Positions 1,773 through 52,679 are shown, numbered from the stretch's first letter. The stretch is 64,000 bases of DNA from Rhodospirillaceae bacterium (GCA_947467145.1 CANIGJ010000003.1:143065-207064); one strand, 5' to 3'. Numbers and translations are program-made. The notes: generated from the sequence alone by a model not told the origin.

Positions 1773-1859
<87 letters not shown>

Positions 1860-3554: not shown

Positions 3555-3574
3555 GGGCCTCGCTCGATAAGGCT

Positions 3575-5296: not shown

Positions 5297-5365
5297 CGCA
5301 ATACTTCCGCAGGGGCACTAGCGTTATCCGCCCCCGGCACGTGCGAAGCAACTCGGTAAGACCCC

Positions 5366-16179: not shown

Positions 16180-16464
16180 ATGCAAAAGGTTTCCACCAAA
16201 GGCGCTCTGCTCGCCGCGTCCGCTTTCGCGACTTTCGCTGTGATGGCCGCCGTTTCGCCGTCCAAGGCCGGCCCCGCGCCGGAGCCGACCTTCAAGGCCG
16301 AGAAGTGCTATGGCGTCGCCGCCTCGGGCCAAAACGATTGCGCGTCGGCGGGCAGCAATTCCTGCGCCGGGACCGCGACCAAGGCGAGCGACCCGAAGGC
16401 CTGGATCTATGTGCCGGCCGGGACGTGCACCAAGATTCAGGGCGCCACTCTGAAGGCGATGTAA
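16180..16464 (+). CDS. bufA: DUF2282 / BufA1-type bufferin precursor peptide (Sec signal peptide + Cys-containing core)
   Basis: ORF 16078..16464 trimmed to the ATG at 16180, which follows TGGAGAGA. MQKVSTKGALLAASAFATFAVMAAVSPSKA is a signal peptide. The core EKCYGVAASGQNDCASAGSNSCAGTATKASDPKAWIYVPAGTCTKIQG has the four Cys in the DUF2282 pattern. Confidence 0.85.
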   Translation: MQKVSTKGALLAASAFATFAVMAAVSPSKAGPAPEPTFKAEKCYGVAASGQNDCASAGSNSCAGTATKASDPKAWIYVPAGTCTKIQGATLKAM

Positions 16465-16485
16465 TCGGATCGGTGCGGGGCGGTC

Positions 16486-17328
16486 ATGTTGGACACTTCG
16501 GCGGTACATGCTGGCGCTCTGGTCGGAATCGGCCTGCGCGGACCGCATCTGGTCGAATTGCCGCGACGCCGCCCCGCGCTCGATTTCGTCGAAGTCCATG
16601 CCGAGAACTATATGGATTTCGGGCCGGCGTTCGATCGACTGATGGACGTGCGGCGCGACTACCCCGTCAGTCTGCATGGTGTCGGACTATCGCTGGGCAG
16701 CGCCGATGGGCTCGATGCGCGACATCTCGCGCGCTTCCGCGATCTGATCGCGCGTATCGATCCGATTCTTGTCTCCGAACATCTCGCCTGGTGCATCGCG
16801 GGCGGCGTCTATCTGAATGATTTGCTGCCGCTTCCCTATACCGAAGAAGCGCTTGACCTCGTCGCGCGCAATGTTGCGCGGGCACAGGAGGCGCTCGGCC
16901 GTCGTTTGCTGGTCGAAAATCCGTCGCGTTATCTCAACTTCGCCCATTCGCCGATTCCCGAAGCGGAGTTCTTAGGCGCACTGGTGGTGCGCACCGGCTG
17001 CGCTATTCTCTGCGACATCAATAATATCGTCGTGAGCGCGCATAATGTCGGCGAAGACGCGAGCGCTTATCTTGAGAAACTGCCACGCGCAGCGGTGCAG
17101 GAAATTCACCTGGCGGGACATAGCGTTCAGTCGATCGATGGGCGAACCATCCTGATCGACGATCACGGATCGCCGGTCAGTGATGAGGTCTGGCGGTTAT
17201 ACGCGCGCGCCCGGCAGACATTCGGCGCCGTGCCGAGCTTGATCGAACGCGATCGCAATCTGCCGCCGCTCGATGAATTGTTGGCCGAAGCCGATCGCGC
17301 AAGAGTTGATCATGCTCTCGCTGCTTGA
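16486..17328 (+). CDS. bufB: DUF692 / MNIO (multinuclear non-heme iron oxidative) enzyme, BufB-type
   Basis: 280 aa with a TIM-barrel DUF692 pattern: GIGLRGPH...DFVEVHAENYM...LHGVGLSLGS...VSEHLAW...LVENPSRYL...DINNI.VSAHN...EIHLAGH...LIDDHG. It starts 21 nt after bufA. Confidence 0.88.
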   Translation: MLDTSAVHAGALVGIGLRGPHLVELPRRRPALDFVEVHAENYMDFGPAFDRLMDVRRDYPVSLHGVGLSLGSADGLDARHLARFRDLIARIDPILVSEHLAWCIAGGVYLNDLLPLPYTEEALDLVARNVARAQEALGRRLLVENPSRYLNFAHSPIPEAEFLGALVVRTGCAILCDINNIVVSAHNVGEDASAYLEKLPRAAVQEIHLAGHSVQSIDGRTILIDDHGSPVSDEVWRLYARARQTFGAVPSLIERDRNLPPLDELLAEADRARVDHALAA

Positions 17329-18082
17329 AATCCAAACGGCATTCGCCGGCGCCTTGTTATATGACGGCGCCGCCGATCTTGGGGACTGGCTGCGCGACGA
17401 CGGCATTGCCGCCACTGCGCGGATCGACATCTATCGCAACAATATGCAGGCCTCGCTGAGCGCGGCACTCGGCGAGATGTTCCCGGTCATCCGCCGTCTC
17501 GTCGGCGATGGCTTCTTTGCCTACGCGACCCATGAATTCGTCAGCCAGCATCCGCCGGTTTCGCCCTGCGTGGCCGATTACGGCGCGGGCTTCGCCGACT
17601 TCCTGTCTGCCTTTGCACCATGCTGTGAATTGCCCTATCTGCCTGATGTCGCGCGCTTCGAACGATTGCTGCACGACGCCGCGCGCTGTGCCGATGCGCC
17701 TCCACTCGATGCGTCGGCGCTCGCTGGGATCGACGCATCGGATGCTGGGCGTCTGGTTTTCACGCTCCAGCCGTCGCACGGCTATCTCTGTTCGCCGTGG
17801 CCGGTGACGGCGATCTGGCGCGTCAATCAGGATGGCCGCGATGGCGCGGTCGATCTGCAGGGTGGCGGCGTCCTGGTCGAGGTCTGCCGCCCCGACGGCA
17901 TTGTCGAGTTCCGTGAATTGCCTCCAGCGGATTTTGCCTTTCGCGCCGCGTTGGCCGGTGCCGCAACATTTGCCGATGCGCTGGTGGCCGCGTCCGATCG
18001 CGACGCCGCGTTCGATGTCGCCGCCGCCTTGGCCGAATTGTTGGCCGATCGCGCCATCACTGGCGTTCGGCTTATGGAGTGA
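17312..18082 (+). CDS. bufC: DUF2063 domain protein, BufC-type MNIO partner
   Basis: ORF 17273..18082 trimmed to the ATG at 17312 (MLSLLEIQTAFAGALL...IDIYRNNMQASLSAALGEMFPVIRRLVGDGFFAYATHEFVSQHPP). This is the conserved DUF2063 N-terminal region. It overlaps bufB by 17 nt. Confidence 0.8.
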   Translation: MLSLLEIQTAFAGALLYDGAADLGDWLRDDGIAATARIDIYRNNMQASLSAALGEMFPVIRRLVGDGFFAYATHEFVSQHPPVSPCVADYGAGFADFLSAFAPCCELPYLPDVARFERLLHDAARCADAPPLDASALAGIDASDAGRLVFTLQPSHGYLCSPWPVTAIWRVNQDGRDGAVDLQGGGVLVEVCRPDGIVEFRELPPADFAFRAALAGAATFADALVAASDRDAAFDVAAALAELLADRAITGVRLME

Positions 18083-18089
18083 AAGACCG

Positions 18090-18518
18090 ATGCCCAACTT
18101 AGCAACGCTGTTCGCCGATCTCGAACGATTCCCGCTGTCGATTCTGCAATTCCTGTTCAGAGTGTCGATCGGGTTGGTGTTCTGGTATTCGGGCCTGACC
18201 AAGATCGCGAGCTGGCCGACCACGATCCTTTTGTTCCGGGACGAATACGCCGTTCCGCTTCTGCCGCCGGAGCTCGCCGCGACCTTTGCGACCGCCGTTG
18301 AATTAAGCTGTCCGGTCCTGCTGCTCTTCGGATTGGCGACGCGTCTCGCGACCTTGCCGCTGATCGGCATGACCCTGGTGATCCAGATGTTCGTCTATCC
18401 GGAATCCTGGAGCGTCCATTTGATGTGGATGGCGATCTTGGTGTTCATCCTGACGCGTGGCCCGGGTGCGCTGTCGATCGATCATTGGATCGCGCGTTCG
18501 ATACGGCCGAACGTCTAA
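18090..18518 (+). CDS. DoxX family membrane protein (fourth gene of the bufferin-type operon)
   Basis: ORF 17832..18518 trimmed to the ATG at 18090. 142 aa with 4 predicted TM segments. FLFRVSIGLVFWYSGLTKI... is the DoxX N-terminal motif. It starts 7 nt after bufC. Confidence 0.8.
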   Translation: MPNLATLFADLERFPLSILQFLFRVSIGLVFWYSGLTKIASWPTTILLFRDEYAVPLLPPELAATFATAVELSCPVLLLFGLATRLATLPLIGMTLVIQMFVYPESWSVHLMWMAILVFILTRGPGALSIDHWIARSIRPNV

Positions 18519-18539: not shown

Positions 18540-19352
18540 TTAAGACGTGGTGCGTTTGCGCGGACGTTTCGGCGCGACCTTGGGATAATTGACGGCCGTT
18601 TGGTGCACGTGGTGACCCATCAGGTCGGCCGCTTCGGCGGCTTTGCCCTTTTCGATGAGCTGTAAAATCTGCTCGTGAATTTTCTGAATGCGTTTGCGCG
18701 CCGACAGCGTCAGCTCGACGTCGTCGCGCCGGGTCACCAGACGCAAGGCGCGAAACAGCGAACTCAACACCGGATTCTGCGTGCTCTTGGCGACGCAGAC
18801 ATGGAATGCAAGGCCGTTGTCCTGGAACGCATGTACGGAGCCGATCAGATCGGCGCCGTCCTGCACGATCGCATGTAACTCCTTGATATTGTCGGCAGTG
18901 CGGCGCTGGGCGGCGAGGCGGGCGGCCGTCATCTCGATGACATGTTGCATCTCGAATATCTGCGGCAGGTTCACATCCGCTAGTTTAAACTGTACCGCCA
19001 ACGCCTCGGCGAAACTGTCTGGGTGTCCTTCGGCGATCCAGGCCCCACCTTTCGCCCCTGAGCGAACCTCGATGATGCCAAGACCCTGCAGCGATTGCAG
19101 CGCCTCGCGTGCGGTGCGCCGCCCGACCTTGAATTTTTCTACAAGCGTACTTTCCGAGCCGAGAAAATCGCCGGGACGAAGCAGGTCCTCGAAAAGCTGG
19201 CTCTTGACGTGGGCGACAAGCGCATCCGACGCCCGAGATGACGATTGCGGTTCGAATTCGAGCGGCGAAGAGATCTTGGGGCGGCTTTTTCGCAAAGGCT
19301 GGGTCCGATGGCGACAACGATACGATTGGCGGAAACTATCGTGTTTTCGCAA
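18540..19352 (-). CDS. GntR/FadR family transcriptional regulator
   Basis: N-terminal wHTH LRPGDFLGSESTLVEKFKVGRRTAREALQSLQGLGIIEVRSGAKGGAWI plus an all-helical FCD-like C-terminal domain. The start is uncertain: TTG at 19352, or an in-frame TTG at 19292. Confidence 0.75.
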   Translation of the reverse strand: MRKHDSFRQSYRCRHRTQPLRKSRPKISSPLEFEPQSSSRASDALVAHVKSQLFEDLLRPGDFLGSESTLVEKFKVGRRTAREALQSLQGLGIIEVRSGAKGGAWIAEGHPDSFAEALAVQFKLADVNLPQIFEMQHVIEMTAARLAAQRRTADNIKELHAIVQDGADLIGSVHAFQDNGLAFHVCVAKSTQNPVLSSLFRALRLVTRRDDVELTLSARKRIQKIHEQILQLIEKGKAAEAADLMGHHVHQTAVNYPKVAPKRPRKRTTS

Positions 19353-19420
19353 ATATTCAAACGCTGGTCCGGGACGGCGACCCAGATTCAGCTAGTGTCC
19401 GTATTTGTCGCCTGCTAAAG

Positions 19421-19436
19421 ATGTCATATATGACAT
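19421..19436. promoter_or_regulatory. Perfect 16-bp palindrome ATGTCATATATGACAT, candidate GntR-family operator
   Basis: It reads identically on both strands. It contains the GT-N-AC core typical of GntR/FadR operators. It lies in the divergent intergenic region between the regulator and the Rieske oxygenase gene, just upstream of AAGGAGG (19444-19450). Confidence 0.45.
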
Positions 19437-19457
19437 ATATAAAAAGGAGGCCTCGTC

Positions 19458-20765
19458 ATGACGTCGGCGCGCGATAACGAAACTCTCACGTCGGTCGGTC
19501 CCGGCACACCGATGGGCGAATTGATGCGGCGCTATTGGGTTCCGGCTGCGCTCTCCAGCGAGGTGACCAAAGACGGCGATCCGTTGCGGCTTAAATTGCT
19601 ATGCGAGGACCTGATCGCGTTTCGCGATTCGTCAGGCCGCGTCGGCGTGATGGATCATCGCTGCCCGCATCGTTGTGCCTCCTTGTTCTTCGGGCGCAAC
19701 GAAGAAGGTGGTATCCGTTGCGTCTATCACGGCTGGAAGTTCGACGTCGACGGCAACTGCACCGACATGGCAAATGTGCCGCCGCACCAGGATTTCAAGC
19801 ACAAGGTTCATGCCAAGGCCTATCGCGCCGAAGAACGCGCTGGCCTAATCTGGGTCTATATGGGCGATCAGGCGCGCGTGCCGGCCCTGCCTGATCTGGA
19901 GGTGTTGCAACTGGACGCCGACGCGGTGGGAATCGATGTGTTTCAGCGCGAATGTAATTGGTTGCAGGCGCTCGAAGGCGACATCGATACATCCCACGTC
20001 GATTTCTTGCACGGCGGAACGCGTACGGTCGATGATTTTCCGCCGGACGATCCGCGCCGCTACGGCGCGATCCATCGCGATCCGGAATACACGATTGCGG
20101 AAACGGACTGGGGTACGATGTATGGCGCCCATCGCCCCGCCGATCAGGGACGGCGCTATTGGCGTGTCGCCCATTTCCTGTTTCCGTTTTGGACGATGAC
20201 GCCGGCAGGCGTTTTCGACACCTATATCCATGCGCGCGCCTGGGTGCCGATGGACGATCACCACACCATGGGCTTTGGTCTATCGAAAAAGGGATCGCGC
20301 CTGACGGCGATCGGCAACGCCAAGCAGGGCATTGCGCTTCACGTCGAGGAACGCTTACCCAATACCACCGACCGGTTCGGCCGGTGGCGCTTTGCTGCCA
20401 ACGCGCGCAACGATTACCGGATCGATCGCGCTGCCCAACAATCGCAAATCTATAGCGGCATCACCGGCATCACGCTGCAGGACCAGGCGATGACCGAAAG
20501 CATGGGAGAGGTCGTTGATCGTTCGCTGGAACATCTGGCGCCGAGCGATCGCATGATTGCCGTGACGCGCCGTCGGCTTTTGTTTGCTGCTCAAGCCTTG
20601 CAGAAAGACGCCGTGGCACCTCCCGGCGCCGATGAGCCCGGTGTGTTTCATGGCGCACGTGGCGGCTATTACCTGGCGCCGGAAAATGCCGAATGGCAGG
20701 ATTTTTATAAAGAAAGACTCACCTCGGTACGCCGCCAAGCCAGCTCCGCCGCAGCGGCGGAATAA
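19458..20765 (+). CDS. Rieske (2Fe-2S) non-heme iron oxygenase, alpha-only (phthalate/VanA/PobA-like family)
   Basis: Rieske motif CPHRCASLFFG...CVYHGWKF. The catalytic domain has NWLQALEGDIDTSHVDFLH (Fe ligands). No beta subunit follows. There is a strong RBS. Confidence 0.85.
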   Translation: MTSARDNETLTSVGPGTPMGELMRRYWVPAALSSEVTKDGDPLRLKLLCEDLIAFRDSSGRVGVMDHRCPHRCASLFFGRNEEGGIRCVYHGWKFDVDGNCTDMANVPPHQDFKHKVHAKAYRAEERAGLIWVYMGDQARVPALPDLEVLQLDADAVGIDVFQRECNWLQALEGDIDTSHVDFLHGGTRTVDDFPPDDPRRYGAIHRDPEYTIAETDWGTMYGAHRPADQGRRYWRVAHFLFPFWTMTPAGVFDTYIHARAWVPMDDHHTMGFGLSKKGSRLTAIGNAKQGIALHVEERLPNTTDRFGRWRFAANARNDYRIDRAAQQSQIYSGITGITLQDQAMTESMGEVVDRSLEHLAPSDRMIAVTRRRLLFAAQALQKDAVAPPGADEPGVFHGARGGYYLAPENAEWQDFYKERLTSVRRQASSAAAAE

Positions 20766-20808
20766 AGCAATAATCAAGTATAATCCTACAGGGAAGATCG
20801 GACCAACC

Positions 20809-22353
20809 ATGCTCACATTCGCATATCGACTGACGGTCTGCGCCGTCGCACTTGTCATGTCGGCGACACCGGGCTTCGCGCAGAAATCCAAGGATACCTT
20901 CCGCCAATTGCATGCGCAGGCGATTGCGACGCTCGATCCGTATCTCGATCCGCGGCCCGAAGTGTATTTCGCCAGCGAGATGCCGTTCGACCGATTGATC
21001 ATGCTGGACGAAGGGGCCGAGAAATTCGTCGGCAATCTTGCGCGATCCTGGGCCCGCCCCGATACCAAGACGATCGAGATGGAGTTGCGTGACGACGTCA
21101 CCTGGAGCGACGGACAGAAATTCACGGCGGACGACGTTATTTATACGCTGGGGTATCTGTCCAATCCGAAGTCGAATTTTCGCTTCGCGAGCGATTACGA
21201 CTGGATCGAGCGCGTCGAGAAGCTCGGGCCGCACAAGATTAGGATCGTCGCATCGCGTACTGTTCCTTACGACCTGGCGCGGCTAGGTGGATACACCTTT
21301 ATGTTTCCTCAGCACGTTCACGGGCCGCTTGAGTCCAAGCAGGATTTTGGCCGTGCTCCCGTTGGAACCGGCCCGTACAAAATCGTGCAGGTCGACAAGA
21401 ACACGGGAATTCGTGCGGAAAAGCGTACCGACCATGTCCACGCCAATAACGTAAAGAAGTCGCCATCGATTAAAAATGTGGTTCTGCGCGGTGTGCCGGA
21501 CCGGGGAACGCGCGTCGCCGAGCTTTTGGCCGGCAATGTTGATGCGATCCACGACGTCTCGCCCGATCAGGCCGAAGATTTGGCCAAGTCGCCGCAATTG
21601 GCCATGACGGTGACACTTCCCTTCGCCTATCAATACATGATGATCGATATGAAGGGGCGCAGCGGTGTGGCTCCGCTTAAGGACAGGCGCGTGCGGGCCG
21701 CGATACTGCACGCGATCGATCCGGAGGCGATCAACATAATGATCGGCGGAAAGTCCGTTAGCCTGACGCGCCCGCCGGCGCTGTGCCACCCGATGCAGCT
21801 TGGCTGCGACTATTCGCTCGAAACGCCGAAGTTCGACCGGGCGAAGGCGCGCGGCCTTTTGGCCGAGGCCGGCGTCCCATCCGGTTTCGACGTCGCGATC
21901 ACGACGAACAGTCTCGCCGGAAAGGATATCGCCGAGGTCGTGGCCGGTCAGCTGCGTGCGATTGGCATCCGCGCCAACGTCGACCCGCAAACCTTTGCCG
22001 CCTATCGCCAACTGCAGAGCGACGGCAAGATCAATATGATGATTTCTGGCTGGGGCGGCGGTGGGTTGCCAGATGTCGGCGGCACGCTTGATTTCCTGTT
22101 CGAGGGCGGCTCGCGCGATTATCACGGCGTGCCCGGTTGGGTTGAAGCCGCGCAGAAGGCCAACACTGAAAACGACGATCGGGCGCGACGCGCCATCGTG
22201 AAAAAACTTTTCGACGAGGTAACGACGGAAGGTTATATCGTGCCGATGGCGCCGATCCCGCGCTTTTGGATGCATACCCGTGAGGTCAAGATCGCGACGC
22301 CCAGCAGCTTCAATGCCTACGGTGCGGATGCATGGGGCTTTTCGTGGGAGTAG
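20809..22353 (+). CDS. ABC transporter substrate-binding protein, family 5 (peptide/nickel/opine type)
   Basis: ORF 20584..22353 trimmed to the ATG at 20809 (MLTFAYRLTVCAVALVMSATPGFAQ, a signal peptide). The length (about 514 aa) and the WSDGQKFTADDV.YT motif are typical of SBP_bac_5. There are no adjacent permease or ATPase genes. Confidence 0.8.
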   Translation: MLTFAYRLTVCAVALVMSATPGFAQKSKDTFRQLHAQAIATLDPYLDPRPEVYFASEMPFDRLIMLDEGAEKFVGNLARSWARPDTKTIEMELRDDVTWSDGQKFTADDVIYTLGYLSNPKSNFRFASDYDWIERVEKLGPHKIRIVASRTVPYDLARLGGYTFMFPQHVHGPLESKQDFGRAPVGTGPYKIVQVDKNTGIRAEKRTDHVHANNVKKSPSIKNVVLRGVPDRGTRVAELLAGNVDAIHDVSPDQAEDLAKSPQLAMTVTLPFAYQYMMIDMKGRSGVAPLKDRRVRAAILHAIDPEAINIMIGGKSVSLTRPPALCHPMQLGCDYSLETPKFDRAKARGLLAEAGVPSGFDVAITTNSLAGKDIAEVVAGQLRAIGIRANVDPQTFAAYRQLQSDGKINMMISGWGGGGLPDVGGTLDFLFEGGSRDYHGVPGWVEAAQKANTENDDRARRAIVKKLFDEVTTEGYIVPMAPIPRFWMHTREVKIATPSSFNAYGADAWGFSWE

Positions 22354-23145: not shown

Positions 23146-24162
23146 TTACTGCCAGGTGGCAAACGCCATGGCGTTGCCGGTGCCCGCTTCGGAGCGGTAG
23201 CACGGCACGTAATCGAGCAGGTTCATTTCGTAGTTCGTGGTCGACAGAACGCCCAAGGTCGCGATCCAGTTCTTGGTCTCCGACGTGCCCGAATTGAAGA
23301 TGATGTTGGGCTCGCTGATGATCGTCTTATAGTCGCGGGTCTGCATCGCCTTCAGCATCTTGCGGTCCCACGCCTCGTCGATGACGAAGTGCGACAGCCC
23401 ACCCGACGCCACGACCAGCACGCGCTTGTCGCTGTCCCACTTCTGGATGCCGCGGCTGATCGCCTGGCCCAGCTCGAAGCAGCGCTTCGGCGTCGGCTGG
23501 TTGGGCGGGAAGAAGGTGTTGATCAGCACCGGCACCAGCGGGATCGCCTTGTCCTTCAGGATGCGGCGATAGATGAAGGTGACCGCATGGCCGATGCCGC
23601 GCGGGCCTTCCGGGCCTTCCGGCACCTTTTCCGATGCGGTGACGTCGAATTCCGACTCCATGCATTCGGCGACGATGGTGTTGGCGAGATCGGGCACGCA
23701 GTCGTACCAGGTATCGACCGGTGTATGGCGCGACGCTTCGACGAGCTGCACCGCGGGGTCCTTGTGCGCGTGCTTGGCGGCTTCGTAGCCCGTGTTCAGC
23801 ACCTTGTCGCCGGAGAAGATCGAATAACTCGGCTGCACGTCGTCGAAGAACCATTCATGCTGGTCATCGCCGATCAGCACGATCACATCGGGTTTCATCT
23901 TCTGGACGGTTTCGCCCAGCTTATCGAGCGCCACCTGGCAGCGGTTGAACCGTTCGGCGCGCACGTCGGGCAGGATTTCCTTCTCGAAATGCTCCTGCTC
24001 GCTGTTGCGCTTGGCGAGTAGCTGCGGGAAATCGTACACGCCGCCGCGGAAATGGTGCTCTTTCAGGTTGCGGTCGAAATTGGCGCGCAGCGGCCATTGT
24101 TCCGCGGGGAGAATAAGCAGTGGCCCGTGGGACGATCCCATCCCGCCGACGATCTTTGCCAT
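23146..24162 (-). CDS. Class III extradiol ring-cleavage dioxygenase (LigB family)
   Basis: ORF 23146..24222 trimmed to the ATG at 24162, which follows AAGGAAAG. MAKIVGGMGSSHGP... and later VLVVASGGLSHF are LigB-family hallmarks. 338 aa. Confidence 0.75.
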   Translation of the reverse strand: MAKIVGGMGSSHGPLLILPAEQWPLRANFDRNLKEHHFRGGVYDFPQLLAKRNSEQEHFEKEILPDVRAERFNRCQVALDKLGETVQKMKPDVIVLIGDDQHEWFFDDVQPSYSIFSGDKVLNTGYEAAKHAHKDPAVQLVEASRHTPVDTWYDCVPDLANTIVAECMESEFDVTASEKVPEGPEGPRGIGHAVTFIYRRILKDKAIPLVPVLINTFFPPNQPTPKRCFELGQAISRGIQKWDSDKRVLVVASGGLSHFVIDEAWDRKMLKAMQTRDYKTIISEPNIIFNSGTSETKNWIATLGVLSTTNYEMNLLDYVPCYRSEAGTGNAMAFATWQ

Positions 24163-24309: not shown

Positions 24310-24867
24310 TTGGTCGTGCCTTTGTTCAATTCCATCGACCGTTATGGCGCTATGGCTCGGACCCTTCACTGGGCCACCGCGCTCCTGGTCGGGGCCGCTT
24401 GGCTGCTGGGGCAGATCGGCGAGGATATCGGCGGCCACGGCCCGCGTGCTGCGGGGCTTATCGCGCATGTCATGGTTGGCCTCGCCGTACTCGTGACGTT
24501 GACCCTACGCGTCGGCTGGCGCCTTATCGACACGCCGCCGCCGGCCGAGGCGACACCGCTTGGTTCTCTCGCGGATCGCGCCGCGGGCCTCGTCCATTAC
24601 CTACTGCTGTTTCTTCTGCTAGCCGCGCCCCTCGCCGGAGTGGCGTACCAGTTCGCGCGCGGTGAGCCGTTGTACCTGTTCGGATTTGCCGAGATCGCCT
24701 CGCCCCTGACTTTGTCGCGCGATGTCGCGCGCGGCATCAAGGAACTGCATGAGGCTTTTGCCAACGCGCTCCTGGTCCTGGCATTGCTGCACGCGCTGGC
24801 GGCGCTGGGTCATCATTGGATCTTGCGCGACCGCGTGCTGAAGCGGATGTGGCCGTTTTCCGATTGA
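24310..24867 (+). CDS. Cytochrome b561 family protein
   Basis: 185 aa with 4 TM segments. The conserved His positions are RTLHWATALLV, AHVMVG, HEAFANALLVLALLHALAALGHH. Confidence 0.75.
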   Translation: MVVPLFNSIDRYGAMARTLHWATALLVGAAWLLGQIGEDIGGHGPRAAGLIAHVMVGLAVLVTLTLRVGWRLIDTPPPAEATPLGSLADRAAGLVHYLLLFLLLAAPLAGVAYQFARGEPLYLFGFAEIASPLTLSRDVARGIKELHEAFANALLVLALLHALAALGHHWILRDRVLKRMWPFSD

Positions 24868-24870
24868 CGG

Positions 24871-26091
24871 CTAGAGCGCCGCGTAATCGACGGGTTGAGC
24901 GATATCGATGCGCTTGCCGGCGGGAGGCATCGGGTATTTAAGCCCCGTCGCGCAATTGAACAGCAGGGCACGCTCGCCCGGATCGATACGGCCCGTCTTC
25001 AGTTCCTTCTTGTAGGCGGCGTAGGTCGCGGCTCCTTCCGGGCACATTAGCACGCCGTCGCTTTGTGCGACCTCCGCCAGTCCCGCCGCGATCTCGTCGT
25101 CATCGACCGCGGTGGCGAACCCATTCGAGGCGCGCACGGCGCGCAGGATCAGGAAATCGCCGACGGCGGCGGGCACCCGGATGCCGGCGGCATATGTATG
25201 GGCATCTTCCCAGCGCTTGGCGAATTCCTCGCCTTGTTCGAACGCGCGCACCATCGGCGCGCACCCGGCGGCCTGCACCGCGACCATGCGTGGACGTTTC
25301 TTGCCGATCCAGCCGATTTGGCCCAATTCCTCGAAAGCTTTCCACATGCCGATCAGGCCGGTGCCGCCGCCGGTCGGGTAGAGGATCACATCGGGGACCT
25401 CCCAGCCCAATTGCTCGGCCAATTCGAGTCCCATCGTTTTCTTGCCTTCGATGCGATAAGGCTCCTTTAGGGTCGAAGTATCGAACCAGTTCATGATGTC
25501 CTTGCCGGCGCCGACGATCTTGCCGCAATCGTCGATCAGGCCGTTGACCAGATAGGTCCGCCCGCCTTGCAGGGCGATCTCGCGCACATTCACTTCCGGT
25601 GTGTCGTCGGGGCAGAAAATATAGGTCTCGATGCCGGCGCGTGAGCAGTATGCCGCGAGGGCCGCACCCGCATTGCCGTTGGTCGGCATTGCCATGCGGG
25701 TCACGCCCAATTCCTTGGCCATCGCGACGGCGAGCGCCAGGCCGCGTGCCTTGAACGAACCGGTCGGCAAGCGGCCCTCGTCCTTGACCAGCAGCTCGGC
25801 GGCACCCAGACGCTTGGCGGTTCGCTCGAGCGGCAGAATAGGCGTCATGACCTCGCCAAGGCGCACGACGTTCTCGGCGCGTCGCACGGGCAGGAATTCG
25901 CGGTAGCGCCAGAATTCCGGCAGGCGTGCCGCGATGGCGGCTTTGGTCACACTCTTGGCCAGTGACTCGAGGTCATAGCGCACGAGCAAAGGCTTGCCGG
26001 CCTTGGATAGGCCCTGAAGTGTGTCGGCGGGATAACGTTCGCCAGTCAGGCTGCATTCGAGATGCGTGACGAAAGTCGGCGTTTCAACCAT
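24871..26091 (-). CDS. Threonine synthase family PLP-dependent enzyme
   Basis: 406 aa. The PLP-lysine motif is LPTGSFKARGLA, with a GNAGAALAAY and PTGGGTGLIG glycine-rich loop. It is of the short threonine synthase type. Confidence 0.8.
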   Translation of the reverse strand: MVETPTFVTHLECSLTGERYPADTLQGLSKAGKPLLVRYDLESLAKSVTKAAIAARLPEFWRYREFLPVRRAENVVRLGEVMTPILPLERTAKRLGAAELLVKDEGRLPTGSFKARGLALAVAMAKELGVTRMAMPTNGNAGAALAAYCSRAGIETYIFCPDDTPEVNVREIALQGGRTYLVNGLIDDCGKIVGAGKDIMNWFDTSTLKEPYRIEGKKTMGLELAEQLGWEVPDVILYPTGGGTGLIGMWKAFEELGQIGWIGKKRPRMVAVQAAGCAPMVRAFEQGEEFAKRWEDAHTYAAGIRVPAAVGDFLILRAVRASNGFATAVDDDEIAAGLAEVAQSDGVLMCPEGAATYAAYKKELKTGRIDPGERALLFNCATGLKYPMPPAGKRIDIAQPVDYAAL

Positions 26092-26291
26092 TGCGACGCT
26101 CCAAGGTTACGATGTGCGCGCCGTAGCATATTGATCCGGCGCGGTGATTGGGAATCCTACTTACCCGTGTCGTTGAAGAGCGCAAACCCCTTTCAATTGC
26201 CTTGAGAACGAATCAGAGACATTTTCGCCAAGTATAAAAACGCTGGCGATAACAATCGGCCATAAGGCCATGTTCTTGAGGAGTACGCAGA

Positions 26292-27206
26292 ATGTCCGCT
26301 CGTAACGCGGTCCCGGCGCTCGCGGATGCGATCGGCGTCGAAGACAGATTCAATCTCGCCTTCTCACGATTGTTCACTTACCTGTCTCCCAAGGAAACGA
26401 AAGCGCTGCTATCGCGCGCCACCTTGATCGAATGCGAGCCGGGTGAGTTCATCGTCTATGAGGGCGCCTCCGCCTCCGCGCTGTTCGTCATCGTCGAAGG
26501 CGAGGCGAAGGTTCTCAAACGCGAATATACGCAACGCCATCATGAGAAGATGATCGAACTCGCGCGCCTCGGCCTGGGCTCGATCATCGGCGAGATGTCG
26601 TTCTTGGACGGCGACGTCGCCAGCGCTTCGGTGATGGCCGATCGGCCGACCAAGCTCTACCGCATCGATCTCAAGGTGATTTTCGATCTGATCGAACATT
26701 CGCCGGAATTCTCGACCAATTTCTACCGCTCGCTCGCCGGCATCCTGTCACGCCGCCTGCGCGTCGCGAACGCCGTGCTGACCACGTCGCAGGAAGTACG
26801 CTCGGTCGCGGCCAAGGATCATCATCGCATTTTCGTTGTGGACGACGATCCCGAGGTCCTCAAATTCATCACCTTGTTCCTGGAAAGCGCCGGGCACAGC
26901 GTGCGCTCCTCCACCAGCCCAATCGAAGGGCTCTCGCTGATCAAGCAGTTCCGGCCCGATATGGTGCTGACCGATCTGATGATGTCGGGCATGAACGGCT
27001 TGGATTTCTGCCGCGAGCTGCGCCGCCACGCCGAATATACCGCGATGAAGATCGTCATGATGTCGGTGCGCCCGGAAGCCTATTGGACCGGTGAATCGCT
27101 CGATGCCGGCGCGGACGGTTTCATCATGAAGCCGCTTAATCCGGAAACCATCGTCTCGCAGATCGAACGGGTGATGGCGACCAACCATACGGCGCGCGCG
27201 GCCTAA
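26292..27206 (+). CDS. Cyclic nucleotide-binding-like domain fused to a C-terminal response-regulator receiver domain
   Basis: The N-terminal CAP_ED-like part is GEFIVYEGASASALFVIVEGEAKV...GSIIGEMSFLDGDVASASVMA. The C-terminal REC part is IFVVDDDPEV...PDMVLTDLMMSGMNG...KIVMMS...GADGFIMKP. Confidence 0.75.
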   Translation: MSARNAVPALADAIGVEDRFNLAFSRLFTYLSPKETKALLSRATLIECEPGEFIVYEGASASALFVIVEGEAKVLKREYTQRHHEKMIELARLGLGSIIGEMSFLDGDVASASVMADRPTKLYRIDLKVIFDLIEHSPEFSTNFYRSLAGILSRRLRVANAVLTTSQEVRSVAAKDHHRIFVVDDDPEVLKFITLFLESAGHSVRSSTSPIEGLSLIKQFRPDMVLTDLMMSGMNGLDFCRELRRHAEYTAMKIVMMSVRPEAYWTGESLDAGADGFIMKPLNPETIVSQIERVMATNHTARAA

Positions 27207-27274
27207 ACGGCCGTTCGGCCAACCGTATGGTCTGAGCGCTGGACGGATGGGGTGGCGGACGATAGCGTCCTGCC

Positions 27275-27967
27275 ATGACCTCAGATCACAATGTTAAGGT
27301 CCGCACGGCGGGCGCGCTCAAATCCGGCATGGCCAAAAGCGTGGACGCCTTCAAGGCTGCGCATGGCTGGGCCTTTGCGCCCAGTTTCACGCACGGCCCC
27401 CATATCGAAGACGAACTCGCGCGCCAGGACTGCGACGCCGATATCGTCGGCCTGATGGACGACGCGATCGCTGGCGGCATCGCACGCGGCTGGCTCGCGT
27501 CCCGCCGCGTACCCATCGGCTCGATCCAGATCGGGGTCGCGATCCGCGACGGCGCCGAACGGCCGGATATATCCAACATGGACCTGTTCACCGCGGCGTT
27601 GCGCGGTGCCGATACCTTGATCTATACGACCGCGGCCAGCGGCGAATATATGGCGGGCGTGCTCACCAAGATGGGCTTCATCCGCCGCTTTGAGGACAAA
27701 ACCGTGCGCTATTCAAGCGGTGCCGAGGTCAATGCGCGCCTGGCGGCCGGCAAGGCGAAGCACGAAATCGCCTTCGGTGTCGCGACCGAATTCCTGTCCA
27801 ATCCCAAGGTCGTCTATCTCGGCCCCTTGCCCGCCGAGATTCAATATCCGTCGCCCTACGAGTTCGCCGCCCTGGCGGGACGCGACAGCGACGATGTGCG
27901 CCTGGTCCTTGATTTCCTCGCCACCCCGCAGGCCTGCGAGATCTTCGCCTCGACGGGCATCGACTAA
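27275..27967 (+). CDS. Periplasmic-binding-protein-like (ModA/SBP_bac_11-like) protein without a signal peptide
   Basis: 230 aa with a type II PBP-like pattern (..IVGLMDDAI...IGSIQIGVAIRDG...LIYTTAASGEY...IAFGVATEF...). The N-terminus MTSDHNVKVRTAGALKSG is not hydrophobic. Confidence 0.55.
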   Translation: MTSDHNVKVRTAGALKSGMAKSVDAFKAAHGWAFAPSFTHGPHIEDELARQDCDADIVGLMDDAIAGGIARGWLASRRVPIGSIQIGVAIRDGAERPDISNMDLFTAALRGADTLIYTTAASGEYMAGVLTKMGFIRRFEDKTVRYSSGAEVNARLAAGKAKHEIAFGVATEFLSNPKVVYLGPLPAEIQYPSPYEFAALAGRDSDDVRLVLDFLATPQACEIFASTGID

Positions 27968-27987
27968 ATTCCTCTAGGAGAGTTCAC

Positions 27988-28932
27988 GTGATCTATATCG
28001 GCACGGATGAGGTCAAACGCCTCGTCAATATTCAGGACGCCATCGATTCACTTGAGGCGAGTTTCAAGAACTGGAGCGACAAGGCGACCGCGAACCTGCC
28101 GCGCCGCCGTTTGAAGGTCGATGGCGCCGGGCTGAATGTCATGGCGGGCGCGATCCCGGGCTCCGATTATTTCGGCTATCGCGCCTACTTGCCGAAGATC
28201 GGCTACAACGCACTGATCCTGCTGTCGCTGAAAGAGAAAGCGCCGGTGGCGATGATCGATCTCAATTGGGCCTCCACGACACGCACCGGTGCCGCGACCG
28301 GTGTCGCCACGCGCTACATGGCGCGCGCAGATGCCAAGCAGCTCGCCGTCATCGGCACCGGGCGTCAATCGCCCGACCAGATCCGCGCCGTGGCGCTGGT
28401 ACGCAAGCTCGACCGCATCACCGTGTTCAGCCGCGACGCCGCCAAGCGTGACGCCTTTGCCAAAAAGATGCAGGACGAACTGGGCGTGACGACGGTGGGC
28501 GCGGCCTCCGCCGAAGCCTGTCTCGACGGCGCTGATATCGTCGTGGCCGCCACCAATTCTACCGTGCCGGTGCTCAAGGGTGCGTGGCTGAAGCCCGGCA
28601 TGCATGTGAACGGTATCGGGGCGAACGGGCTGGAGCGCATCGAACTCGATGACGATTGCGTGCTGCGCGCCGACCAAATTGTAACGGATCAGGTCGAACA
28701 GGCGAAGATTGAGGCGGCCGCCCTGGTGCGGCTCGCCTCCGTCGGCAAGCTCGATTGGTCCAATGTCGTCGAATTGGGTGAGATCGTCGAGGGCACGGTG
28801 CCGACGCGGACGTCGCCGGAGCAGATCACCTTGTTCCATTCGCTGGGCATCGCGTTCGAAGATGTCGCCTTCGGCGCGATGATTTATGAACGCGCCAAGA
28901 AGGAAGGCCTCGGCAAGCCGATGCCGCTCTGA
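27988..28932 (+). CDS. Ornithine cyclodeaminase / mu-crystallin family protein
   Basis: GTG start. 314 aa. LTTRTGAATGVATRYMAR, the Rossmann motif LAVIGTGRQS and VNGIGAN are OCD/mu-crystallin signatures. Confidence 0.8.
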   Translation: MIYIGTDEVKRLVNIQDAIDSLEASFKNWSDKATANLPRRRLKVDGAGLNVMAGAIPGSDYFGYRAYLPKIGYNALILLSLKEKAPVAMIDLNWASTTRTGAATGVATRYMARADAKQLAVIGTGRQSPDQIRAVALVRKLDRITVFSRDAAKRDAFAKKMQDELGVTTVGAASAEACLDGADIVVAATNSTVPVLKGAWLKPGMHVNGIGANGLERIELDDDCVLRADQIVTDQVEQAKIEAAALVRLASVGKLDWSNVVELGEIVEGTVPTRTSPEQITLFHSLGIAFEDVAFGAMIYERAKKEGLGKPMPL

Positions 28933-29061
28933 CGTGTGTTTGGTGACATGTGGTCATTGGGCGACGGGGTACTGAATCCATTTTGCATCGATCCGCCCTT
29001 GGGTTAGGGTTTTGCTGCGTGGCGCGCGGCACTTGCCGCAGGTTCTGGAGTATCGAGACCG

Positions 29062-29568
29062 ATGGCCCAACGGGACGACGATCTGACGCGCACGCCCTCA
29101 CTGCCTGATGAACTGATTCCCAATGTGCGCAGAGGCCTCGGCGGCCTCGTGTTTCACAAGCTCGATGCCGCCGATTGGCAGAACCTGTTCGCCAACGGCC
29201 AGACGAGGATCTATCGCGACGGCGAATATATCTGCCGCGAAGGCGACGAGGGTGATTCGCTGTTTTTCGTCGCCGATGGCGAGGTGCGCGTCCTGGCGCG
29301 TACCCTCGGCGGCAGCGGCGCACCCTTCGAATTGGCGCGGCTGGCCGCCGGTAGCGTGTTCGGCGAAATGTCGTTCCTCGACCGGGCCAAGATCAGCGCC
29401 ACCGTTGCCGCCGACGGTCAGGTCGAAATCGTGCGCCTATACACCAAGGATATCGAACGTCTGATCGCCGACGATCCGGACTTCGGGCTGCGCTTTTATC
29501 GCTCGCTCGCGGTCACTCTGTCGCGGCGCCTGCGCGGCGCCAATCGCCTGATCAGCGAAGGATCGTAG
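29062..29568 (+). CDS. Stand-alone cyclic nucleotide-binding-like domain protein
   Basis: 168 aa. GEYICREGDEGDSLFFVADGEVRV...GSVFGEMSFLDRAKISATVAA. The C-terminal helix FYRSLAVTLSRRLRGAN is paralogous to FYRSLAGILSRRLRVAN in the 26292 gene. Confidence 0.75.
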   Translation: MAQRDDDLTRTPSLPDELIPNVRRGLGGLVFHKLDAADWQNLFANGQTRIYRDGEYICREGDEGDSLFFVADGEVRVLARTLGGSGAPFELARLAAGSVFGEMSFLDRAKISATVAADGQVEIVRLYTKDIERLIADDPDFGLRFYRSLAVTLSRRLRGANRLISEGS

Positions 29569-29663
29569 ACCTAATCAATAGTCGTTGCCCATGAAGTCAT
29601 TGACTGAGGCATTGTTCGCCTAGCTCCGATCCCCTAAAACGGAGGGGAACAAGGAGAGGGTGT

Positions 29664-31154
29664 ATGAGCGATCTCGATGCTGACGTTATCGTCGTAGGTG
29701 CCGGCAATGCCGCCATGTGTGCGGCGCTCGCCGCCAACGACCAGGGTGCGAAGAAAATCATTCTGCTGGAAGCGGCCCCCGAAGAAGAATCGGGCGGCAA
29801 CAGCCGCTACACGGCGGGCCTGTTCCGCATTCCCTACGACGATCTCGATCAACTCAAGCGCATCATCCCGGACATTTCGGCCGAGGAAGAGAAGAACACC
29901 GACTTCAGCCAATATCGCAAAGAAGATTTCTACGACGATATGGGGCGCATCACGCAGTTCCGCGCCAATCCCGATCTCGTCGAACAATTGGTCGAACAGG
30001 CCCAAGACACCGCCGTATGGATGCGCGGCCACGGCGTGCGCTTCCTGCCGGCCTATGGGCGTCAGGCCTTCAAGCATGAAGGCAAGTTCAAGTTCTGGGG
30101 CGGCGCGCATATCGAAGCGTCGGGCGGCGGACCGGGCCTCGTCGAATCGCTGACCAAGGAGGTCAACAAGAAGGGCCTCGAGATTCGCTACCGCACGCGC
30201 GGCAGCCGCCTGATCGTCGAGGGCGGCAAAGTCACCGGCGTCGTCGCGGTGAAGGACGGCCAGGAGATCGAACTGCGCGCGCGCTGCGTCGTGCTGGCGA
30301 GCGGCGGGTTCGAGGCGAATTCGGAATGGCGCACCCGCGCCATGGGCCCGGGCTGGGACCTCGCCAAGGTGCGCGGCACGCGCTTTAACATGGGCGGCGG
30401 CATCAAGATGGCGCTCGATATCGGCGCGATGCCTTACGGCAACTGGTCGGGCGCACATGCGGTCGGCTGGGACCGCAACGCGCCCGAGTTCGGCGATCTC
30501 GAGGTCGGCGACAATTTCCAGAAGCATTCCTATCCGTTCGGCATCATCGTCAATATGAACGGCGAACGCTTCGTCGACGAAGGCGCCGATTTCCGCAACT
30601 ACACCTATGCGAAATACGGCCGCGCCGTGCTTGAACAGCCGGGCCAGTTCGCCTGGCAGGTGTTCGATTCCAAGGTCACGCATCTGCTGCGCGACGAATA
30701 CCGCATCAAGCAGATCACGAAAGTCACGGCGAACACGCTCGAAGAATTGGCGAAGAAGCTCGACGACGTCGATCCCGCCGGTTTCATGCGCGAGGTCACG
30801 GCTTATAACGCCGCCGTGCGCACCGACATCACGTTCAATCCGAACGTGAAGGACGGCCGCCACACCGAAGGCTTGCGTGTGCCGAAATCGAACTGGGCAA
30901 ACAAGCTCGATGCGCCGCCGTATGAGGCCTATGCCATCACCTGCGGCATCACCTTCACCTTCGGCGGTCTGCAGATCGAACCGACGACGGGCCGCGTGCT
31001 CGATACCGGTGGCGAAGCCATCCCCGGCCTGTATGCCGCCGGCGAATTGGTCGGCGGGTTGTTCTATTTCAACTATCCGGGCGGCTCGGGCCTCGTGTCC
31101 GGTTCGGTCTTCGGCAAGATCGCCGGCACGGCTGCGGGCACCTACGGACGATAA
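29664..31154 (+). CDS. FAD-dependent flavoprotein, TcuA (tricarballylate dehydrogenase)-like
   Basis: 496 aa. DVIVVGAGNAAMCAALAA, GGNSRYT and the C-terminal GLYAAGELVGG are present. The overall pattern is that of TcuA-type FrdA-superfamily flavoproteins. No TcuB-like partner is present. Confidence 0.75.
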   Translation: MSDLDADVIVVGAGNAAMCAALAANDQGAKKIILLEAAPEEESGGNSRYTAGLFRIPYDDLDQLKRIIPDISAEEEKNTDFSQYRKEDFYDDMGRITQFRANPDLVEQLVEQAQDTAVWMRGHGVRFLPAYGRQAFKHEGKFKFWGGAHIEASGGGPGLVESLTKEVNKKGLEIRYRTRGSRLIVEGGKVTGVVAVKDGQEIELRARCVVLASGGFEANSEWRTRAMGPGWDLAKVRGTRFNMGGGIKMALDIGAMPYGNWSGAHAVGWDRNAPEFGDLEVGDNFQKHSYPFGIIVNMNGERFVDEGADFRNYTYAKYGRAVLEQPGQFAWQVFDSKVTHLLRDEYRIKQITKVTANTLEELAKKLDDVDPAGFMREVTAYNAAVRTDITFNPNVKDGRHTEGLRVPKSNWANKLDAPPYEAYAITCGITFTFGGLQIEPTTGRVLDTGGEAIPGLYAAGELVGGLFYFNYPGGSGLVSGSVFGKIAGTAAGTYGR

Positions 31155-31158
31155 AACG

Positions 31159-32055
31159 ATGAGCGACCTCGCCGTCGATCTCGTTCTCGATGCGCATGCC
31201 ACACTGGGCGAAGGCCCGGTGTGGAGCACCGACGAACAGCGGCTCTATTGGGTCGACATCATGAAGAACGAGATCCACCGCACCGATCCGGCGAGCGGAA
31301 AGGATGAGGTGCGCGATCTGGGCGAGCAAGTCGGCAGTCTCGGCTTGCGCGCGCACCCCGATGCCAAGGGCAATCTCGTCGCGGCGTTGCGCTCGGGTTT
31401 CTATTACGTGGATTTCGCGAGCGGCACGAAAACCTTCATCTGCGATCCGGAAAACAAGCCGAACAACCGCATGAACGACGGGCGCTGCGATCCGTACGGC
31501 GCGTTCTGGGCGGGCACGATGCTGGATCCGTCCGACCGCAAGACGCGCACGGGATCGATCTGGCGTCTGGCACCGGACGGTACGGCGTCGATGAAGGTCG
31601 ACGATATTGGCGTATCCAACGGCATCGCCTTCGATGCCGAGCGCCACTATTTCTACTGCGCCGACACCTTTGCCGATGTTCAGACGGTGTGGCGCTTCGA
31701 TCACGATCCGGACACGGGCGCGATCTCCAACCGCCGTATCTTTTTCACCGCGCACGAACTGCCGGGCCGGCCCGATGGTGCCTGCGTCGATGTCGAAGGC
31801 TGCTATTGGGTGGCGCTGACGAGCTGCTGGTCGGTGGCGCGCTTCACGCCCGACGGCAAGCTCGACCGCCTGATTAAAACGCCGGTGCAGAAGCCGACCA
31901 TGTGCGTCTTCGGCGGCGCCGATATGTCGACGCTATTCATCACCTCGATGGGCTTTGGCTATCTGCCGCAGGCGGAGGGGCAGCCGCATGCGGGCGGTCT
32001 GTTCGCTTGCCGCCCTGGCGTGATGGGTGTCGCGGACGGCAAGTTTAGAGGCTGA
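31159..32055 (+). CDS. SMP-30/gluconolactonase/LRE family protein
   Basis: ORF 30877..32055 trimmed to the ATG at 31159. LGEGPVWSTDEQRLYWVDI, NDGRCDPYGAFWAGTM, SNGIAF and PDGACVD are the beta-propeller lactonase motifs. It starts 4 nt after the flavoprotein gene. Confidence 0.8.
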   Translation: MSDLAVDLVLDAHATLGEGPVWSTDEQRLYWVDIMKNEIHRTDPASGKDEVRDLGEQVGSLGLRAHPDAKGNLVAALRSGFYYVDFASGTKTFICDPENKPNNRMNDGRCDPYGAFWAGTMLDPSDRKTRTGSIWRLAPDGTASMKVDDIGVSNGIAFDAERHYFYCADTFADVQTVWRFDHDPDTGAISNRRIFFTAHELPGRPDGACVDVEGCYWVALTSCWSVARFTPDGKLDRLIKTPVQKPTMCVFGGADMSTLFITSMGFGYLPQAEGQPHAGGLFACRPGVMGVADGKFRG

Positions 32056-52553: not shown

Positions 52554-52648
52554 GGGAGGCCGGCAGTGGACGGCTTGCTCGCCAACCCGGTCAGGTCCGG
52601 AAGGAAGCAGCCGTAACGAGTTTCGGCCGGGTCGTTGTCCGGTCTCCC
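52554..52648 (+). ncRNA. ffs: Signal recognition particle RNA (small bacterial 4.5S type)
   Basis: It contains the universally conserved domain IV sequence GGTCAGGTCCGGAAGGAAGCAGCC (52589-52612). The flanking arms GGGAGGCCGG / CCGGTCTCCC pair to close the hairpin. It lies directly upstream of dnaX, as in many alphaproteobacteria. The ends are accurate to about 5 nt. Confidence 0.85.
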
Positions 52649-52679
52649 ACTTCTCTCCCGCTCCAGCACACGGCTCGCC

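Follow-up and report, generated by a model that had tools for sequence, protein, structure and literature searches.

Six co-directional genes at positions 26,292 to 32,055 of a 64,000-nt stretch of Rhodospirillaceae DNA (GCA_947467145.1 CANIGJ010000003.1:143065-207064; "the window" denotes this whole stretch) raise the question of whether their products act together, on what kind of substrate, and under whose control. The genes, here called g1 to g6, encode two proteins with cyclic nucleotide monophosphate (cNMP)-binding-like domains interleaved with four enzyme-like proteins. An original prediction had described them as one catabolic or signalling module, controlled by the two cNMP-domain proteins, whose substrate would be a cyclic amino acid, a cyclic imino acid or a lactone-type compound. 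The answer proposed here is narrower. The cluster is read, tentatively and with somewhat less than an even chance, as an accessory catabolic module around g2 and a lactonase, with ornithine cyclodeaminase (OCD)- and TcuA-type enzymes, that acts on a lactone-forming organic or imino acid and is optionally equipped with non-canonical cyclic-nucleotide-binding (CNB) proteins. The substrate possibly originates from ring cleavage.

All six genes are on the plus strand, with intergenic gaps of 68, 20, 129, 95 and 4 nt from g1 to g6 as first described, and each of the domain assignments made at that time is upheld by Pfam. g1 (26292..27206) encodes a cNMP_binding domain (residues 47-136) followed by a Response_reg domain (residues 180-291). 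g2 (27275..27967) encodes a protein that matches SBP_bac_11 across its full 230 aa. g3 (27988..28932) has the domain OCD_Mu_crystall (PF02423), g4 (29062..29568) has cNMP_binding alone, g5 (29664..31154) has FAD_binding_2 and matches the NCBIfam family TcuA, and g6 (31159..32055, with the start at 31159 taken from the gene call) has SGL (PF08450).

The complete six-gene order is confined to near-identical metagenome contigs, and exact copies of the proteins were found only in metagenome contigs and metagenome-assembled genomes (MAGs). The window and these contigs have the order g1-g2-g3-g4-g5-g6. Loci L007, L008 and L023 (g1 69% identical) have g1-g2-g3-g4-g6, without the flavoprotein gene g5, and loci L009, L015 and L037 (g1 63%) have g1-g2-g3-g5-g6, without the stand-alone cNMP gene g4. 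L038 (g2 74%) has g2-g3-g5-g6, with neither cNMP gene, followed by a gene for a receiver-EAL protein. In L021 (g2 86%) and L024 there is no g1, and the PALP-family gene that lies upstream of the cluster (g0, discussed below) is directly divergent from g2. Rearranged loci are L014 (g2 51%), with the order g2-SGL-SGL-cNMP and overlapping stop and start codons, L033, with the order g2-cNMP-SGL, and the P0127 contig (g2 54%), in which a LigB gene is directly divergent from g2. The claim that the six genes are a conserved unit is thus contradicted by the synteny of their orthologs, which breaks down outside a narrow clade, and by a composition that varies inside it.

What persists through rearrangement, in L014 and L033, is g2 together with a lactonase gene, and g6 is found in every variant for which downstream sequence is available. 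The usual attachments to this pair are an OCD enzyme behind g2, a flavoprotein coupled to the lactonase, and a ThrC-like enzyme and LigB upstream. Wherever g3 occurs, it follows g2 at a distance of 20-35 nt, and g5 and g6 are separated by 4 nt or 10 nt, or overlap by 4 nt, wherever both are present, so g5 is probably translationally coupled to g6. The idea of functional linkage therefore survives for some of the genes, through the g2-lactonase adjacency and the tight g5/g6 and g2/g3 spacing, and not for all six. The stand-alone cNMP gene is absent from L009, L015, L037 and L038 and present in L007, L014 and L033. Because the presence of the cNMP genes does not track g2 similarity, these genes appear to have been repeatedly gained or lost. 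The flanks of L007 and L009 are syntenic with the window as well (LigB, cation efflux, HxlR, glutathione S-transferase [GST] and BacA genes), and for this reason the synteny of the cluster at these two loci reflects largely shared descent and says little about function. The LigB, PALP, OCD and FAD proteins of the window are 88-94% identical to those of its relatives and SGL is 81-85% identical, compared with only 63-70% for g1 and g2; most of the remaining flanking genes fall at 53-79%. The cluster is limited to a small clade of uncultured Rhodospirillales-like Alphaproteobacteria from soil or water, in which modules come and go; one relative MAG is labelled Caenispirillum bisanense (Rhodospirillales; g2 70% identical), and one g4 homolog is labelled Rhodospirillales.

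g2 is a core gene of the cluster and is predicted, from its structural model, to encode a cytoplasmic ModA-fold protein for the binding of a small anion or organic acid. No upstream extension of its open reading frame is possible and residue 8 already opens the first beta-strand, so the protein has no room for a signal peptide. The first strand of 20 aligned homologs begins 5-12 residues from the N-terminus and none of the 20 has a signal peptide, which bears out the initial description of g2 as a periplasmic-binding-protein/ModA-like protein lacking one. The AlphaFold2 model (predicted local distance difference test score 93) shares the class II periplasmic-binding-protein fold and size of ModA and PBP2_YvgL-like proteins, with template modelling (TM) scores of 0.81-0.82 to ModA structures at 16-19% identity (0.82 to Klebsiella pneumoniae ModA). 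There is no PDB sequence match, and the score against the ModA model TIGR01256 is 25.5 bits (cut-off 62.5). g2 differs from ModA in lacking a signal peptide, in having a distinct set of invariant polar residues, and in being linked to lactonase, LigB or oxygenase genes rather than transporters; no modB, modC, ABC permease or ATPase gene is present at the locus. The invariant polar residues of the family are His40, Asp56, Arg91, Tyr117-Thr118-Thr119, Ser122, Asn153 and Glu172. By eye, Ser12 and Ser39 of E. coli ModA seem to correspond to Ala14 and His40 of g2. The g2 clade (at least 51% identity) comprises about 30 clusters, all environmental, and the next identities are at most 37%; homologs in cultured bacteria reach at most 31%. 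Scans of public genome and metagenome collections with the g2 alignment returned 6 and 16 loci, respectively, most of them short. A literature search on cytoplasmic ModA-like proteins found nothing relevant.

g6 is the second core gene, and its product can be classified by sequence as a putative SMP30/regucalcin-type metal-dependent lactonase. It scores 275.6 bits against PF08450 and matches mouse regucalcin over its full length (E-value: 4e-44). The motifs GEGPVW, NRMNDG, SNG and PDG of g6 align with GESPVW, NRFNDG, SNG and PDG of regucalcin, in which the metal-site residues are Glu18, Asn103, Asn154 and Asp204. Among bacterial sugar-lactone lactonases, g6 is 43% identical to those of rhizobia and Bosea. 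The Bosea homolog sits in a sugar-acid cluster (SGL, Gfo/Idh/MocA and L-arabinonate dehydratase genes), whereas g6 is accompanied by g2, g5 and g3 and not by genes for a sugar dehydrogenase, dehydratase or aldolase.

The product of g5, a putative soluble FAD enzyme of the TcuA or flavocytochrome c fumarate reductase type, passes the NCBIfam TcuA model NF006130 (576 bits, cut-off 369) and falls short of the stricter TIGR02485 (256 bits, cut-off 372.55). Its alignments with urocanate reductase and with the flavin domain of Shewanella fumarate reductase run from end to end, but g5 lacks the cytochrome domain of flavocytochrome c fumarate reductases. It also differs from the TcuABC system of Salmonella, since no TcuB-type (Fe-S/CCG-domain) or citrate-transporter-type (TcuC) gene lies within +/-10 kb of it in the window or likewise in relatives; the suggestion that g5 encodes a TcuA-like flavoprotein with no TcuB partner therefore stands. 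Homologs of g5 with 57-64% identity occur in many unrelated clusters, among them those of Paracoccus, Ruegeria and Shinella, and for this reason its substrate cannot be transferred from them. g5 is 94% identical between the window and L009:12708-14198, where its neighbours are 85-89% identical and g1 and g2 63-70%; this may reflect unusually strong constraint or a more recent exchange of g5. A FAD_binding_2 protein of 468 aa, encoded upstream of the cluster in L007, is 29.5% identical to g5, and L007 itself has no g5.

The product of g3 is probably an NAD(P)-dependent enzyme of the OCD/mu-crystallin family (PF02423, 196 bits), either an oxidoreductase of imino or amino acids or a cyclodeaminase. 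It reaches no equivalog cut-off (best PRK08618, 210 bits against 417). The closest solved structures are delta1-pyrroline-2-carboxylate reductase and archaeal alanine dehydrogenase, and the best match in plasmids is 33-34% identical. Assigning substrates from the cultured homologs of g2, g3, g5 and g6 was considered and rejected, as none of them allows such a transfer.

A possible direction for the substrate comes from distant homologs of g2. Proteins with 34-39% identity to g2, in which the family's invariant polar residues are kept, are encoded beside aromatic-catabolism genes: Rieske ring-hydroxylating oxygenase subunits and LigB-LigA fusions in L034/L020 and L016, an FAA hydrolase, an alcohol dehydrogenase and a FAD_binding_2 protein in L017, a Gfo/Idh/MocA oxidoreductase and GSTs in L013, and a beta-propeller protein in L018. 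At the window locus itself, a LigB-type protein of 338 aa (23146..24162, minus strand; Pfam LigB) is encoded outside the six-gene span and is a candidate associated gene. LigB adjoins the cluster in every variant with enough upstream sequence, including the P0127 contig. The protein is 92-94% identical in relatives and 25% identical to the LigBA protein of L016, and its score against the NCBIfam class III extradiol models (88 bits) is below the cut-off. These neighbourhoods weakly suggest that the locus processes ring-cleavage-derived acids. Protocatechuate and gallate 4,5-cleavage pathways (LigAB-LigC-LigI-LigJ-LigK) resemble the locus in the constant LigB-family neighbour and in their logic of lactone hydrolysis followed by tricarboxylate processing. 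They differ from it in that g6 is of the SMP30 type and not a LigI-type amidohydrolase, LigJ and LigK are missing, and LigB is very divergent. The resemblance is a lead and not evidence of membership. A literature search on TcuA with extradiol dioxygenases found nothing relevant.

g0 (24871..26091, minus strand; PF00291) encodes a ThrC-like pyridoxal phosphate (PLP) enzyme of the PALP family and is divergent from the six-gene cluster. It scores 642 bits against the NCBIfam threonine synthase model NF006050 (cut-off 303) and is 89-93% identical in relatives, where it is always divergent from g1, or from g2 where g1 is absent. Like LigB, it goes with the cluster in each variant for which upstream sequence is available.

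The product of g1 is, as first described, an N-terminal cNMP-binding-like domain fused to a receiver domain with no output domain. Pfam finds PF00027 (54.0 bits, cut-off 27.5) and PF00072 (90.7 bits) and no third domain. The receiver is intact, with the acidic pocket, phospho-acceptor Asp, Ser and Lys all kept (D184/D185/D186, D228, S258 and K280-P281 are invariant in 12 family members). A tblastn search of the 64-kb window with a histidine kinase and a HisKA protein found no histidine kinase, the only match being the g1 receiver itself, and no HisKA or HATPase_c genes are present within +/-10 kb of the cluster. g1 is thus an orphan response regulator. In its structural model, the two domains are joined by a flexible, low-confidence linker and their packing is not predicted confidently (predicted TM score 0.46). 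Every solved structure found to match g1 covers one domain only, so the N-terminal fusion of a CNB domain to a receiver, which sets g1 apart from known CNB proteins, occurs in no solved structure found. The family is tiny: it has 14 clusters in a set of 5.8 billion proteins and just one representative in a set of 1.84 billion clustered at 50% identity. Ten top hits among the best 150 of the 1.84 billion were scanned for domains and are multi-receiver or multi-cNMP proteins; among the proteins scanned, the g1 architecture occurs only in the family's own representative. Because it is dominated by multi-receiver proteins, this search sizes the g1 family and cannot count all cNMP-receiver fusions. 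A literature search on such fusions found nothing relevant. One g1 homolog (49% identity, L011) stands alone beside a multi-kinase/receiver cluster.

g1 is preceded by a leader and presumed divergent promoter region (26092..26291, plus strand). This 200-nt spacer between the PALP gene and g1 has a GC (guanine plus cytosine) content of 50.5% compared with 62.2% for the whole window, in agreement with the low-GC leader noted earlier. An alignment of six divergent versions of the leader contains conserved blocks and a GAGGAG ribosome-binding site. One of its elements, the 10-mer TCCTACTTAC (26155..26164, plus strand), has a single copy in the window and is invariant amid about 35% divergence of the surrounding leader. 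It is found at the same place in 15 of 15 fetched loci that carry g1 and is absent from fetched loci without g1; since its presence follows g1, this element, a candidate promoter or operator, is to be assigned to g1 rather than to the genes for the enzymes.

g1 looks damaged at one site in some relatives. The gene is frameshifted in metagenome contig L036 (2120-2175) at the KLYR|ID position, and in two MAGs (proteins P0031 and P0033) it is called as a 176-aa protein that starts, in both cases, at the adjacent Val128. The window carries two TCGATCT repeats at the KLYR|ID site. The damage may reflect a deletion hot spot or be an assembly artefact.

g4 encodes a single CNB domain (PF00027, 67.6 bits against the cut-off of 27.5) that is 40.6% identical to the g1 N-terminus over 138 aa (E-value: 1e-21 to 1e-23). 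The two are therefore paralogous, as had been proposed. The C-terminal helix FYRSLA..LSRRLR.AN, noted earlier as shared, is indeed present in both. Its counterpart in E. coli CRP is the C-helix (RLSAQMARRLQ), with which it aligns, so it is a generic feature of the domain and no special link between g1 and g4. The predicted beta-barrel and C-helix fold of g1 and g4 matches those of PKA-R, CRP and GlxR.

The binding cassette in the aligned g1 and g4 families reads GEMSF(L/V)(D/E)xxxx-SA. Gly-Glu and Ser-Ala are kept, and the cassette arginine (CRP Arg82, PKA-RIalpha Arg209) is replaced in 28 of 28 aligned family members: every member of the g1 family has Ala, and the 23 of 23 aligned members of the g4 family have Ile, Val, Ala, Thr or Pro. 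The window residues are Ala (g1) and Ile (g4), and the position of PKA Ala202 is Ser in both aligned families. Loss of the arginine extends to g4 homologs of about 34% identity from other phyla. Arg82 is essential in CRP. The corresponding residue in PKA neutralises and hydrogen-bonds the cyclic phosphate, and the CNB domains of kinetoplastid PKA, in which it is missing, have purine nucleosides rather than cAMP as ligands (PMC10959531). Given its family-wide absence, g1 and g4 would not bind cAMP or cGMP in the canonical manner, and they probably bind something else. The kinetoplastid regulatory subunits resemble g1 and g4 in that the arginine is replaced and the Gly-Glu ribose contacts are kept (PMC10959531), and differ in that a Glu at the Ala202 position contacts the ribose where g1 and g4 have Ser. 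PDB 6h4g is among the fold matches. The two groups are not related by descent beyond the common fold.

g1 and g4 share with CRP- and PKA-type CNB proteins a PF00027 match, the fold, Gly-Glu and Ser-Ala. They lack, besides the arginine, any helix-turn-helix (HTH), kinase, channel or transporter partner. Neither has an HTH_Crp-type Pfam match; g4 ends 8 residues past the C-helix, and the C-helix of g1 is followed by the linker and receiver. Judged by domain content, they are not CRP/FNR-type regulators, and for want of a DNA-binding domain any control that they exert must run through protein-protein contacts. The closest cultured homologs of g4 (38-40% identity) are CNB proteins encoded downstream of NHLP exporters in Ensifer and Shinella, and other homologs adjoin an OpuAC transporter. 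The model for the former group, TIGR03896 (cut-off 161), gives 58.9 bits for g4 and 53.4 bits for g1. CNB proteins of that family follow NHLP/Nif11 bacteriocin export ABC transporters, whereas the neighbours of g1 and g4 are metabolic enzymes and no exporter is encoded at the locus. Control of the module by the two ligand-binding-domain proteins, the regulatory half of the original prediction, is accordingly weak: neither is present in the otherwise intact L038, and L021 and L024 have no g1. Control through cAMP or cGMP in particular is unlikely, given the missing cyclic-phosphate-binding arginine. The metabolic half has fared better, as a role with a lactone or imino-acid-type substrate would fit the enzyme families.

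The main rival view is that the six genes are not one unit at all but independent genes, for two small signalling proteins, a binding protein and three unrelated enzymes, adjacent only through recent common descent in a narrow clade. The flanking genes are indeed as syntenic as the cluster, the make-up of the cluster is fluid, g4 is set off by gaps of 129 and 95 nt, and homologs of g5 (57-64%) and g6 (43%) lie in the different clusters of Paracoccus, Ruegeria and Shinella and in a sugar-acid cluster, respectively. This view is nevertheless unlikely to be correct, as it leaves aside the g2-SGL adjacency with overlapping codons in L014, the occurrence of g2, cNMP and SGL genes together in L033, the spacing suited to translational coupling of g5/g6 and g2/g3 in all variants, and the markedly higher conservation of the enzymes relative to most flanking genes. 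At the opposite extreme, a fixed operon of all six genes that serves a lactone or a cyclic amino or imino acid and is governed by g1 and g4 as cyclic-nucleotide (or pathway-intermediate) receptors is improbable. Close relatives are without g4, g5, g1 or the two cNMP genes together, sister strains seem to carry a frameshifted or truncated g1, unrelated contexts surround homologs of g1 (49%) and g4 (49%, 38-40%), and the two supposed receptors have no HTH domain and no cassette arginine. Against these observations stand the common orientation and short gaps of the genes, the paralogous cNMP-like domains flanking the enzymes, the recurrence of g4-like genes beside g2 and SGL in the rearranged L014 and L033, and the conserved leader element that is g1's own.

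If the ThrC-like enzyme is counted with the cluster, it and the OCD protein could act like SbnA and SbnB in making an unusual amino acid, by PLP-dependent replacement and then NAD-dependent oxidative cleavage, with the flavoprotein and lactonase tailoring the product. The PALP-family gene is highly conserved and in every case points away from the cluster, and g3 matches the SbnB model weakly (115 bits). That score is, however, far under the cut-off of 327 bits and other OCD subfamilies score higher; g0 is of the ThrC type and not the SbnA/cysteine-synthase type, no transporter, synthetase or siderophore gene is nearby, and PALP and OCD genes are absent from L014 and L033. A biosynthetic role is on balance quite improbable. 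A cyclic-nucleotide anti-phage system of the Pycsar or CBASS kind, with the cNMP proteins as effectors, has practically no likelihood and is effectively refuted by domain content. The PADLOC matches of both cNMP domains to Pycsar effector models are weak (34-42 bits) and cover the generic cNMP domain only, no cyclase is encoded, nor any TIR, transmembrane or nuclease effector domain, the genes alongside are those of metabolic enzymes, and the cassette arginine is missing.

The proposed model for the accessory catabolic module is as follows. g6 would hydrolyse a lactone-forming, carboxylate-rich intermediate, plausibly a ring-cleavage product or a cyclic imino acid. g5 would desaturate or saturate the carbon backbone of the intermediate, and g3 would handle its imine or amino group. 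g2 would bind the acid and serve as its carrier or sensor, or else be a non-canonical enzyme. g1 and g4 would be optional regulatory accessories and not master regulators, and for g1 control could also proceed by phosphotransfer from an unlinked histidine kinase. Several considerations weigh against this model. Every chemical step is deduced from family membership, and relatives that keep the cluster also keep its flanks, so that much of the synteny is shared descent. Rearranged contexts are represented by a few short contigs (those of L014 and L033, and the P0127 contig), and the link to aromatic clusters by about three independent lineages. g2-like proteins with 29-31% identity are found in unrelated contexts, the closest cultured g6 homologs lie in sugar-acid clusters and not aromatic ones, PALP may simply be a housekeeping threonine synthase, and scans of the intergenic regions gave no terminators or promoters to argue either way.

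A bolder proposal is that the arginine-less CNB proteins and g2 form an undescribed metabolite-sensing switch that gates the lactonase and flavoprotein, or a phosphorelay, through protein contacts; g2, the CNB domains or both would then bind a pathway lactone, acid or nucleoside-like signal and not a cyclic nucleotide. This proposal is doubtful and should be given little weight. If it were true, g1 would be a response regulator in which a fused sensor of small molecules controls the receiver, and g2 would found a family of intracellular binding proteins for ring-cleavage or lactone pathways.

Under the favoured accessory-module model, nothing at the locus is categorically new; the new pieces are the arginine-less CNB-receiver fusion and an uncharacterised cytoplasmic ModA-like family. 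If the model is correct, a ModA-fold family with no signal peptide is tied to lactonase and ring-cleavage genes and is mislabelled by annotation pipelines as "molybdate transport substrate-binding protein". Likewise, a broad arginine-less CNB subfamily that is annotated as cAMP-binding or CRP-like probably senses something else, in an echo of nucleoside binding by trypanosome PKA, and the rare sensor-first CNB-receiver fusion could show how a ligand domain modulates a receiver. Because the enzyme families are ordinary and only a few uncultured lineages carry the cluster, its immediate impact is modest and mainly concerns annotation. A literature search on this gene combination found nothing relevant.

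The setting of the cluster is that of an ordinary chromosome, as the window carries a bacterial small signal recognition particle RNA (52554-52651, plus strand) and a tRNA-Leu(CAG) (1773-1859, minus strand). GC content at third codon positions is uniform across g1-g6 and the flanking genes (0.77-0.81), and recent horizontal transfer of the cluster was rejected on this basis. A consensus scan of the intergenic regions found no sigma-70 promoter or terminator above chance, and no Rfam riboswitch or leader RNA match was found across 26000-29700. When four intergenic regions were folded, no structure was convincing as a terminator or leader, the best-scoring fold (z-score -2.2) being a hairpin in the g4-g5 gap that has no U-tract.

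Additional genes were observed around the cluster in the window and its relatives. A cytochrome b561-family gene lies between the LigB and ThrC-like genes (24316-24867, plus strand) and is also present in L009, L037 and L038; in L007 a GDPD gene takes its place. An alpha/beta hydrolase gene adjoins LigB in L009 (6008-6883, minus strand), L037, L038 and the P0127 contig, whereas the window has none. Among NCBIfam families it comes closest to the UilS N-acyl-homoserine lactonases, with a score well below the cut-off (128 bits, cut-off 400). L007 has, 5 kb upstream of its cluster (positions 1-5300), genes for a Rieske alpha/beta pair, LigB (318 aa), FAD_binding_2, Glyoxalase and FAA hydrolase proteins. 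In L038, the receiver-EAL gene behind the lactonase gene has the same orientation as the latter (9038-10189, plus strand) and encodes a PvrR-like cyclic di-GMP phosphodiesterase. Farther from the cluster, 4-8 kb upstream in the window (18540-22353), are genes for a GntR/FCD regulator (minus strand), a Rieske oxygenase with LigXa_C (plus strand) and an SBP_bac_5 binding protein (plus strand), a set that looks like an aromatic O-demethylase-type unit beside the LigB gene and adds to the weak indication of ring-cleavage-derived acids. About 8 kb upstream (16180-18518, plus strand) is a bufferin-type cluster for a ribosomally synthesized peptide with post-translational modifications (BufA1 precursor, MbnB/TglH-like, HvfC_N and DoxX). 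L009 and L037 share this bufferin-type set, which is there preceded by sigma-70 and NrsF anti-sigma genes.

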